In this document: positions 25,216-27,316 of the stretch, piece by piece
Position numbering within the stretch: position 1 is the stretch's first letter
Layout of the letters: the number at the start of each line of letters is the position of its first letter
Source of the DNA: Candidatus Asbonarchaeum danakilense
GTDB taxonomy: Archaea; Nanohalarchaeota; Nanosalinia; Nanosalinales; Nanoanaerosalinaceae
Assembly (NCBI GenBank): GCA_034190465.1
Contig: JAXINV010000003.1
Span: forward strand, 46,047 to 99,607
DNA: 53,561 nt
Reading direction: 5' to 3'
Program-made: the position numbers and the translations under genes
The notes under the pieces: generated by a model
Database searches by the model: none
Told to the model about the DNA's origin: nothing
Seen by the model: the letters and a program-made list of their open reading frames with translations, nothing else

Positions 25216-25815
25216 ATGGGTCTCGACTACGACATCATCGACCACGACGACCGCCATACCGCAGGGGCACGGTTCTCCCTGGACGGCGGCGAGGCAGGGC
25301 TGCACGCCACGATGAGCGACGACTACCCGCCCAGCTCATCCGGCCGGGCACGTCTCTCCCTCAGCTACGGCGACACCACGTTCGAGGCCTACGCACGTGA
25401 GGGCGAGACACCGCATCTGAGAGTCAAGGACGACAGCTGGGGCGACACCGTCGACGGCTACAGCGGCGAACCCATCAGCGACGAGGCCATCGAGGACTGG
25501 AACGACGCGGCTGAGGCCGTCGAGTTCGCAACAGGCGACGTCAACGTCCACGCCGGCACCGAAGTCTTCTACAGCGGAGGCATCGACTGGAAGGAGGAAC
25601 GCGCCTCAGAGGACAGGATCCAGGACGGCATCGACTACGACGTCGACCTGCACAGCAACACCTCCCGGGTCGAGGGGAGAGGAGAACTTGACGAGTTCGA
25701 ACAGATCATCGCCACCTACAAGCCCGAACTGGCGCCGGTCGTCGAGCACGGAGCGATCGAGATAGCCTGGGAGCAGACCATCGACGCCTACGAGGACGAA
25801 GAATTCCTGTTCTGA
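25216..25815 (+). CDS. hypothetical acidic protein (199 aa)
   Basis: TTTATAAA (25186-25193) lies 23-30 nt upstream of the ATG. No motif recognised. Confidence 0.55.
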   Translation: MGLDYDIIDHDDRHTAGARFSLDGGEAGLHATMSDDYPPSSSGRARLSLSYGDTTFEAYAREGETPHLRVKDDSWGDTVDGYSGEPISDEAIEDWNDAAEAVEFATGDVNVHAGTEVFYSGGIDWKEERASEDRIQDGIDYDVDLHSNTSRVEGRGELDEFEQIIATYKPELAPVVEHGAIEIAWEQTIDAYEDEEFLF

Positions 25816-26813: not shown

Positions 26814-26844
26814 GTTTTTAAGCCAGCAGCGATAACGTTGCCGC

Positions 26845-27316
26845 ATGGTGCGGCGCCCCGATTTCGCGCTCGACGACGTCATGCAGCAGCTCGTCGGCGG
26901 TCGCAGATTTCTCGGTGAGAAATCTGCTCGAACAGCATTCAGAAGAATGCTGTGACTTCATCCTCGCCGGACCGTTCATCGTCACCGAAGAGGTCTGGAC
27001 CCTCGCCGGCAACATGGGGGCCATCCACACCGCCATCGCCAACCTGCTCGTGTTCGGTATCGGCTACGGGGCGCTGTTCAAGGCAGACCGGGGCCGCGAC
27101 GAGGAAGACGAAAACGACCTCCTCGGCATCCCGCTCAGGTTCATCTCACTGCTCCTCGTCACCTACGGCTCCGTCATCATCCTCGCTTTCCTGTTCACAG
27201 CACCAGAAACGTTCGGCTACGGCACCCTCACAGACTGGTACACCGTCCTCAGGGCGACCAGCGTCGCCGCGATCTTCAGCGTCGTCGGGGCAGCCACCGC
27301 CGACTCCGTCTTCTGA
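26845..27316 (+). pseudogene. TIGR02587/DUF2391-like membrane protein gene split over two frames by a 55-nt double-hairpin insertion (track ORF 26915-27316 is the downstream part)
   Basis: TATA TTTTTAAG (26815-26822) lies 23-30 nt upstream of ATG 26845. Frame 1 stops at 26953-26955. The +1 frame carries FILAGPFIVTEEVW and 3-4 TM helices. See the corresponding finding. Confidence 0.45.
26903..26953. repeat. two adjacent perfect hairpins (11-bp stem with 3-nt loop; 9-bp stem with 4-nt loop)
   Basis: GCAGATTTCTC-GGT-GAGAAATCTGC (26903-26927) and ACAGCATTC-AGAA-GAATGCTGT (26932-26953), separated by TCGA. Confidence 0.9.

Follow-up and report, generated by a model that had tools for sequence, protein, structure and literature searches.

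The window analysed here, a 53,561-nt (53.5-kb) stretch of contig JAXINV010000003.1 from Candidatus Asbonarchaeum danakilense, carries on its plus strand a gene of the DUF2391 family, the two coding parts of which lie in different frames on either side of a 55-nt segment with two adjacent perfect hairpins. The features of this locus, in window coordinates, are the following.

26815-26822, plus strand: TATA-like box TTTTTAAG of the DUF2391 gene, read directly, 23-30 nt 5′ of ATG 26845.
26845-26901, plus strand: 5′ part of the DUF2391 gene, codons 1-19 (MVRRPDFALDDVMQQLVGG), aligning to orthologue N-termini including the invariant D11, Q14, G18 and G19.
26902-26956, unstranded: 55-nt insertion CGCAG...CTGTGAC, 47% GC, without target-site duplication.
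26903-26913/26917-26927, unstranded: hairpin 1, 11-bp perfect stem, loop GGT.
26915-26917, plus strand: GTG within the hairpin-1 loop, from which a 133-amino-acid (aa) open reading frame (ORF; P0001) is mechanically called; the orthologues have no equivalent.
26932-26940/26945-26953, unstranded: hairpin 2, 9-bp perfect stem, loop AGAA.
26953-26955, plus strand: TGA, supplied by the 3′-terminal bases of the insert, that closes the upstream frame (36-aa product).
26957-27316, plus strand: 3′ part of the DUF2391 gene, codons 20-138 (FILAGPFIVTEEVW...ATADSVF) and stop, read +1 with respect to ATG 26845.

We compared the locus with two syntenic orthologues, L109 (JGI 3300031844, Ga0326307_1000001, a contig of 610 kb) and L110 (Logan SRR34348010). 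An AT-rich box (CTTTTA) and an ATG stand at matching places of both in the DNA alignment, and many ATGs of the window have an AT-rich box 22-32 nt upstream; this spacing, to which the first-pass annotation had drawn attention and which direct reading confirmed, is as expected for leaderless haloarchaeal genes, with ATG 26845 as a leaderless-type start. The frame opened there reads MVRRPDFALDDVMQQLVGGRRFLGEKSARTAFRRML, that is, MVRRPDFALDDVMQQLVGG followed by RRFLGEKSARTAFRRML, and the +1 frame is open from 26822, through GTG 26915, to its stop at 27314-27316. Since 55 equals 3 × 18 + 1, translation from ATG 26845 loses the native frame and therefore ends at the TGA made by the insert. The 119 stranded native codons are intact and keep every orthologue-invariant residue. 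The frames, and the two hairpins with their stems, loops and 4-nt spacing, agree with those first reported.

Alignment of the window with the syntenic orthologues revealed a single 55-nt gap, exactly at 26902-26956 (boundaries of 26901-26955 are equally possible); the junction is gapless in L109 (GGGGGG|TTC) and in L110 (GGCGGT|TTC, identical to the window flanks), and the insertion caused no loss of host bases. The gene order of L109 is that of the window: a metallo-beta-lactamase (MBL)-fold gene, an intact DUF2391 gene (137 aa), deoxyhypusine synthase (DHS), MscS and AAA. In L110 the MBL-fold gene lies directly upstream of an intact DUF2391 gene, and two other genes intervene before DHS. The conserved neighbourhood was seen only in these two loci, found via protein look-ups, and was absent from the 80 best (more distant) genome loci fetched. 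The DUF2391 protein is 64% identical to that of L109, within the range of its neighbours (53-84%, with DHS at 84%). We read this neighbour-like divergence, together with the undecayed stranded half, as the mark of a recent event and not as proof of function.

Deletion of 26902-26956 gives a 138-aa fusion protein, which had 809 homologues among 5.8 billion proteins; the matches listed were 133-191 aa long, mostly about 140, and covered 93-100% of the query, with P0002 and P0003 reaching 63-64% identity over 98% of its length. No intact allele of the species itself was found in the protein collection, where the best match beyond the window's own ORF was 64-65% identical. All 80 genome loci encode the protein as one uninterrupted full-length match. 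In an alignment with 19 orthologues, the junction yields the invariant G18 and G19, a nearly invariant F20, and invariant L22, G24, P25 and F26, and the deletion restores the motif ...QQxVGG|F(I/L)LAGPF.VTEEVW. These results confirm that 26902-26956 is an insertion into a conserved gene, and that removing it fuses the two frames as first described. Full-length collinear similarity, and the neighbourhood in the nearest relatives, identify the host gene as an orthologue of the haloarchaeal DUF2391 gene of about 140 aa.

The first-pass annotation had also placed the fusion, from its N-terminal motif, in the TIGR02587/DUF2391 family. The motif was reproduced and the DUF2391 part stood: against Pfam DUF2391 (PF09622; gathering cut-off 22 bits, whole-protein score) the fusion scored 23.9 bits (E 3.2e-5, residues 9-134), whereas the 133-aa ORF scored 15.9 bits (residues 23-129), below the cut-off, so that codons 1-19 contribute 8 bits. 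With NCBIfam TIGR02587 the fusion again scored higher (33.6 vs 26.9 bits), but equivalog membership was rejected, both scores lying far below the curated cut-off of 183.7 bits. The fusion matches only positions 145-267 of this 271-position model; the haloarchaeal proteins of about 140 aa correspond to the C-terminal half of TIGR02587, related to it but not equivalog members, which accounts for the low score.

As origins of the split gene, the first-pass annotation had listed, without choosing among them, a pseudogene made by a miniature palindromic insertion, +1 recoding, ribosomal bypass, a palindromic artefact, and a short leader ORF followed by a true start at GTG 26915. The comparison above bears directly on the last of these. 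A protein begun at GTG 26915 would have 14 insert residues followed by native residues 20-138 and might work alone or with the 36-aa peptide; the 133-aa ORF does exist, is called as a gene in two assemblies and keeps weak similarity to DUF2391 (the 15.9 bits given above). The codon is inside the insert, however, in a hairpin loop, without an upstream ribosome-binding motif and 70 nt into a leaderless-type transcript, and its product would score under the Pfam cut-off and lack the invariant D11, Q14, G18 and G19 as well as half of predicted helix 1. In all orthologues the start is farther upstream and these four residues are present, and the syntenic ones keep the TATA box and ATG. As a native start, GTG 26915 can be dismissed, and we consider a working shortened protein highly improbable. 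In a model of the orthologue P0003 (pLDDT 83, pTM 0.77), one continuous helix (residues 8-27) spans the GG|F position; because of this, a native protein carrying an 18-aa insert, or one begun at GTG 26915, is predicted to be unlikely. We suggest that 26845-27316 be annotated as a single DUF2391 gene that has been disrupted, and that no 133-aa protein starting at GTG 26915 be entered.

The gene could alternatively still be expressed by translational recoding across the insert, through a hop from UUU 26908 to UUC 26957 (46-nt gap) or from CUC 26911 to CUC 26963 (49-nt gap), or through a +1 shift at UUU-C 26908-26911 or CUG-UGA-C 26950-26956; the junction peptide would then read ...QQLVGGFILAGPF... 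or ...GGRRFILAG.... Several features would suit such an event: with the downstream frame open from 26822, a full-length product results from any +1 event before 26953; UGA-C closes the upstream frame just where the insert ends; the stranded ORF shows no decay; and the 5′ arm of hairpin 1 contains the take-off codons UUU 26908-26910 and CUC 26911-26913, a placement also described for T4 gene 60 (PMC5009743). A hop restoring the native protein is nevertheless impossible, the take-off codon being GGU and the codon before TTC 26957 GAC, and the hops that are possible turn the invariant GGF into GGRRF or GGRRFL (products GGRRFILAG... and GGRRFLAG...). Neither a stop nor a rare codon follows take-off, the next codons being CUC (after UUU) and GGU (after CUC). 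For a +1 shift, re-pairing of CUG at +1 is impossible, the 18 residues encoded by the insert would stay in every product, midway along a predicted helix, and no candidate site has a full set of frameshift signals. We know of no bypassing in archaea. We found no positive support for rescue of the gene across the insert, so neither the recoding nor the bypass proposed earlier gained a signal in its favour, and we give continued expression by either route only slight credence.

Removal of the 55 nt from the mRNA was not among the explanations first listed; we checked it and found it unsupported. Exact removal, as an archaeal intron cut by the tRNA-splicing endonuclease at a bulge-helix-bulge or by other RNA-level excision, would perfectly restore the protein, and 55 nt is within the length range of archaeal mini-introns. 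Against this, an exhaustive local search for the bulge-helix-bulge motif (3-nt bulge, 4-bp helix, 3-nt bulge, with cuts at the exon-intron borders) revealed none giving a 55-nt or a frame-restoring, motif-preserving excision; the central 4-bp helix does not form in any of the three possible junction phases, and Rfam at permissive thresholds returned no ribozyme or other match inside the insert at E ≤ 10. Excision from the RNA is, on these grounds, very remote.

We then consider the insert itself. Its two hairpins, separated by the spacer TCGA, are the sole perfect hairpins (stem at least 9, loop 3-8) across the window, and no 55-nt window departs further from its GC-corrected folding expectation than 26902-26956 (z −5.5; next −3.9); its GC content is 47% vs 61% for the window as a whole. 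Base composition and hairpins both give the segment a foreign look. The two-hairpin structure is well beyond chance. Hairpin 1 starts 1 nt and hairpin 2 ends 3 nt from the junctions (GGT|CG...GTGAC|T), so that hairpin 1 is preceded by GTC, the GT of which belongs to the host, and hairpin 2 is followed by GAC. The two ends are only weakly alike, both hairpins starting RCAG, and direct repeats at the junctions were absent in each of the three possible junction phases, hence the lack of a target-site duplication. Elsewhere in the window, an AT-rich (31% GC) pair of 7-bp hairpins occupies 1848-1886, in the gap between minus-strand ORFs ending at 1847 and 1916, and overlaps the TTTAAA-type promoter box of the 858-1847 gene.

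The identical 55-nt insert was present in L081 (Logan assembly SRR28304477) and L082 (Logan assembly SRR28304476), both from other runs, which differ elsewhere from the window by 5 and 1 single-nucleotide polymorphisms (SNPs), respectively. The same insert in SNP-distinct assemblies excludes an assembly artefact and indicates an allele common to slightly different genomes. Chimeras can produce palindromes in some library types, which is what an assembly, amplification or sequencing artefact would draw on; in addition to its recurrence in the two independently assembled runs, however, the insert is not an inverted copy of local sequence, and presumably it is also unlike the common sequencing adapters. 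The chance that the earlier suspicion of an artefact is right is therefore negligible. Four of the five differences between the window and L081 fall within 15 nt (25720, 25728, 25731 and 25734), inside a 199-aa ORF (25216-25815); this cluster is either a local variable patch or a recombination tract.

Searches for further copies of the insert, which the first-pass annotation had recommended, produced none. Within the window, the 53.5 kb of this organism's genome that the search covered, there was no other copy (up to 3 mismatches; also blastn-short), and the arms of neither hairpin derive from the flanks or elsewhere in the window (blastn-short). Among the genome contigs of 185,579 reference genomes, hairpin 1 had one Bacteroidetes match only and hairpin 2 had 25 non-haloarchaeal matches, which we estimate to be chance for an 18-base pattern in a collection this large. 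In JGI metagenome contigs, both hairpins together had 0 matches, and hairpin 1 alone occurred in five unrelated contigs of 27-56% GC. Viral contigs held no second copy, blastn against plasmids and phages gave nothing significant (E ≥ 2), and the six-frame translations (a 94-aa concatenate) matched nothing among the 5.8 billion proteins at E ≤ 10. No transposase was found among the 20 window ORFs scanned.

Blocks of similar layout are ordinary DNA indels in other haloarchaea, which the first-pass annotation had not taken into account. The class as we define it has two adjacent hairpins with stems of at least 7-8 bp, loops of 3-5 nt and a spacer of at most 7 nt, 42-55 nt in total, and further requires presence/absence between relatives with contiguous flanks. 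The window insert has this layout (11 bp/3 nt, TCGA, 9 bp/4 nt; 55 nt) and its site is empty in L109 and L110. The haloarchaeal loci fetched for comparison contained 11 perfect-hairpin arrays vs 0.2 in shuffles, and adjacent hairpin pairs (one mismatch, 42-55 nt) numbered 22 in 705 kb vs 0-3 in shuffles; adjacent short hairpins are thus a real feature of the haloarchaeal genomes scanned. Folding z-scores of 337 indels of 20-150 nt centre on zero, with the double-hairpin blocks among the most structured outliers alongside a few single-hairpin indels.

Halorutilus salinus F3-133 (L031) has two double-hairpin inserts of about 51 nt, A and B, at 223-272 and 708-758, both absent from its close relative L004. 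One is intergenic; the other occupies 17 in-frame codons (RQTQSDEPSNSAEVRDA) of the gene for RNA polymerase subunit D (Rpb3-type), on the minus strand. A is homologous to the reverse complement of B, the two being in opposite orientation (alignment z 6.9). Four compensatory stem changes and a single one-sided change separate them, which marks them as copies of a diverse family whose stems are maintained. No plasmid match was recovered for the L031 element. In Halorubrum sp. DTA46 (L059), a 112-nt block of four perfect triloop hairpins (1886-1997) is absent from seven other Halorubrum loci with contiguous flanks, and L062 1885-1931 (47 nt) and L015 1935-1983 (49 nt), with two perfect triloop hairpins each, show presence/absence between Halorubrum species. 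These three blocks lie at different points of one intergenic region of about 300 nt upstream of a methyltransferase gene. That comparable double-hairpin blocks sit in intergenic DNA is a further argument against recoding, blocks in such places not being translation devices.

The window insert and the L031 elements have a common layout of 1 nt, hairpin, 4-nt spacer, hairpin and GAC tail; GAC follows hairpin II in both A and the reverse complement of B, cases too few for statistics. Stems starting CAG are enriched among the lower-GC haloarchaeal hairpins (9/38 vs 3/150), and the stems of the insert start in this way. Comparison of the insert with A or B in either orientation gave no significant similarity (z ≤ 1.25, p ≥ 0.13). 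By its architecture, and in that respect only, the insert is probably an insertion like a dimer of repetitive extragenic palindromic (REP) units or like a double-hairpin element (DHE).

The recurrence of such blocks also bears on a one-off origin, in which the insert would be filler from break repair or replication, with snap-back or template-switch synthesis making perfect palindromes, and the gene would be broken without any mobile-element copy. None of the collections searched holds the insert sequence a second time, perfect stems and minimal loops of 3-4 nt in both hairpins are what snap-back synthesis would produce, and neither a target duplication nor a transposase (20 ORFs scanned) speaks for transposition. 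Snap-back normally copies adjacent sequence, though, and the arms come neither from the flanks nor from the rest of the window; furthermore, blocks of the same size and layout recur in haloarchaea, and the homologous L031 copies with compensatory changes point to copying of an element. We regard filler as unlikely, although it retains some weight.

The fetched loci contained several other structured sequences. Same or near-identical hairpin stems (CGAAAGAGC/GCTCTTTCG and CGRAAATC/GATTTYCG) recur in non-homologous places of different genera, at L059 1890-1910 and L101 1661-1681, and at L059 1974-1992, L062 1911-1929 and L101 1634-1656, which suggests that haloarchaea share hairpin types. An exact 24-mer, CCGTCAGAGCAAAGCTCTGACGAG, which forms a 9-bp hairpin with CGTC...GACG at its ends, was found at 21 sites across 20 fetched stretches (L089-L108) from at least 9 haloarchaeal genera, for example at L097 3114-3137 and 3279-3302 and at L092 6470-6493. 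Many sites continue with more hairpins, the stems of which vary with compensatory changes while loops (TCGCTYCGCTC) and linkers (e.g. GGTGAACCG and GATGCTCAG) are conserved. The one CCGTCAGAGCAAAGCTCTGACGAG locus scanned, L022 (the same locus as L097), had no Rfam match at gathering thresholds, and the repeat looks like an undescribed dispersed structured element. At 3440-3466 of L022, directly 3′ of the DUF2391 gene of Halosimplex amylolyticum, a run of about 27 G lies within a long inverted repeat (CATGTTTTTGGCGGAGG...CCTCCGCCAAAAACATG) and may be an assembly problem or a G-tract element. L079 (about 1800-2090) and the equivalent Halorubrum regions have a conserved intergenic framework, …GCGCGAGGGA[hairpin]GAGGCTGGGGAGGCGTGAGG…GGGGCGGGACTCAAAGGGGCAGTCG…, with hairpins at fixed positions, stems differing by species and GGAGCGAAGCGGA-type loops; it had no Rfam match and may be an unannotated structured RNA. 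Finally, L031 290-460 and its equivalent in L004 contain two tandem tRNA 3′-end-like fragments (TGATGCGTGGGACCGGATTTGAACC) adjoining hairpin arrays; Rfam calls no tRNA there, and the fragments may be attachment-site remnants of integrated elements.

Taken together, we put a probability of about 0.7 on a 55-nt insertion at the DNA level, of the REP-dimer-like or double-hairpin class, that inactivates a dispensable DUF2391 gene; of the five explanations first listed, the pseudogene made by a miniature palindromic insertion is the best supported. A 55-bp segment of lower GC with two adjacent perfect palindromes was inserted in the DNA between codons 19 and 20 of the chromosomal gene; translation from ATG 26845 enters the insert and stops at TGA with a 36-aa peptide, leaving 119 native codons in the +1 frame. 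The data show this insertion with its exact extent, the split of the frame and the occurrence in three SNP-distinct assemblies, whereas loss of function, class membership and mode of mobility are inferred. The blocks with which the insert is best classed have two stems of 8-11 bp, loops of 3-4 nt and a spacer of 3-5 nt, and are 47-55 nt long and optional between related haloarchaea; with at least one block family having homologous copies in both orientations, the insert would be a miniature insertion like a REP dimer or a DHE. Because there is no duplication and either orientation occurs, we guess that movement involves a single-strand, hairpin-recognising step, as for REP doublets forming hairpins (REPINs) and elements of the insertion sequence (IS) type IS200/IS605. 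The DUF2391 gene is most likely a recent pseudogene, the loss of which the population tolerates.

Several points weigh against this interpretation. No second copy of either hairpin was recovered from the window or from the genome, metagenome, viral, plasmid, phage and protein collections, and the 20 window ORFs scanned include no transposase. Class membership consists of architecture and weak shared features (CAG stem starts, GAC tail) in an insert with no sequence similarity to the L031 elements. The fully intact state of the stranded 119 codons fits a recent event and would equally fit a gene still in use, and the unchanged presence of the insert in three slightly different genomes shows that it is no transient mutation.

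Taken alone, the locus records an ordinary event, a small insertion frameshifting a non-essential gene of unknown function. What is noteworthy is the type of insert: double-hairpin blocks of about 50 nt are repeatedly optional between related haloarchaea and occasionally land in genes, one copy being tolerated in frame inside an essential RNA polymerase subunit. In a limited literature search we met no account of REP-like or double-hairpin elements from haloarchaea. We hold it possible, at somewhat less than even odds, that these blocks form a new archaeal class of double-hairpin mobile elements, that the insert is a member and that the gene is simply dead. Such a class would be an archaeal analogue of REPs, Rickettsia palindromic elements (RPEs) and DHEs. 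In GC-rich archaeal genomes it would give rise, unnoticed, to frameshifts, inserted peptides and wrong annotations, and Haloferax genetics would make it a tractable system in which to study how hairpin elements move. The stronger combination, in which an undescribed double-hairpin class of about 50 nt in Halobacteria, entering both coding and intergenic DNA without target duplication, has the insert as a live member and the ribosome also decodes across it, by a hop from the hairpin-1 arm or a +1 shift at CUG-UGA-C, so that the membrane protein continues to be made, seems to us very doubtful; decoding of this kind would have no precedent in Archaea, either as translational bypass or as a programmed +1 'repair' of an insertion.

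Among known systems, the T4 gene 60 gap and the Magnusiomyces byp elements resemble the locus in that an insert of about 50 nt, carrying a hairpin at its 5′ edge, separates two halves of a conserved gene that are out of frame with each other (PMC5009743), and candidate take-off codons lie within a stem-loop here as well, in the 5′ arm of hairpin 1. The gene 60 gap differs in having a stop directly 3′ of the take-off codon (PMC5009743), where the window has none; moreover, the native-junction codons of the window, GGU and GAC, do not match, and the UUU/UUC and CUC/CUC pairs alter the invariant GGF. Haloarchaeal MITEs, or miniature inverted-repeat transposable elements (e.g. MITEHsal2 of Halobacterium salinarum), are likewise non-autonomous, gene-disrupting and optional between strains, but the listed copies are about 405-413 bp long, belong to named IS families and have target duplications of 5-7 bp (PMC7002104), in contrast to the 55-bp window insert. 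We rejected a classical MITE, given the absence of a target-site duplication and ends that show no more than the weak RCAG similarity.

Single-strand chemistry without target duplication characterizes the palindrome-associated elements derived from IS200/IS605, which have two different subterminal hairpins and lack the usual inverted-repeat termini. Their known ends require a stretch of about 10-20 nt from cleavage site to hairpin foot, whereas the hairpins of the insert are 1 nt and 3 nt from the junctions, and the haloarchaeal examples have no common target tetranucleotide. The mitochondrial DHEs of Allomyces and other fungi, the hairpin-forming repeats of sponges and the GC clusters of yeast resemble the insert in form, with two adjacent hairpins in tens of nucleotides. 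They are optional between relatives, lie between genes and occasionally within them, and are not known to move by any particular mechanism. All of these are organellar and multi-copy; the window insert belongs to an archaeal chromosome and is so far a singleton.

The likeness to REPs, bacterial interspersed mosaic elements (BIMEs) and REPINs lies in short palindromes, each with a small loop and a stem of about 8-9 bp, often paired and mostly extragenic but sometimes in ORFs (PMC3733652). The haloarchaeal blocks similarly show no evident target duplication, and several have GTC/GAC flanking or starting their hairpins; the window insert has the dimer layout, and REP dimers have an unpaired GTAG or CGTC tag at one end. 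REPs differ in forming high-copy families within a genome, whereas the insert has no second copy in the window or the public collections scanned; their loops are 4-5 nt rather than the 3-4 nt seen here, and no gene for a REP-associated tyrosine transposase (RAYT, an IS200-like Y1 transposase) was found among the 20 window ORFs scanned. The CGTC-tagged class of REPs, for which only bacterial phyla are listed, occurs inside ORFs and has no known dedicated transposase, and the Rickettsia elements RPE-4 and RPE-6 are placed within it (PMC3733652). The window insert differs from RPEs in lying out of frame and destroying an ORF instead of adding a peptide to its product. RPEs are about 100-150 bp long and, like the blocks described here, are small palindromic elements that enter protein-coding genes; the L031 copy in RNA polymerase subunit D is an in-frame translated insertion of that type.

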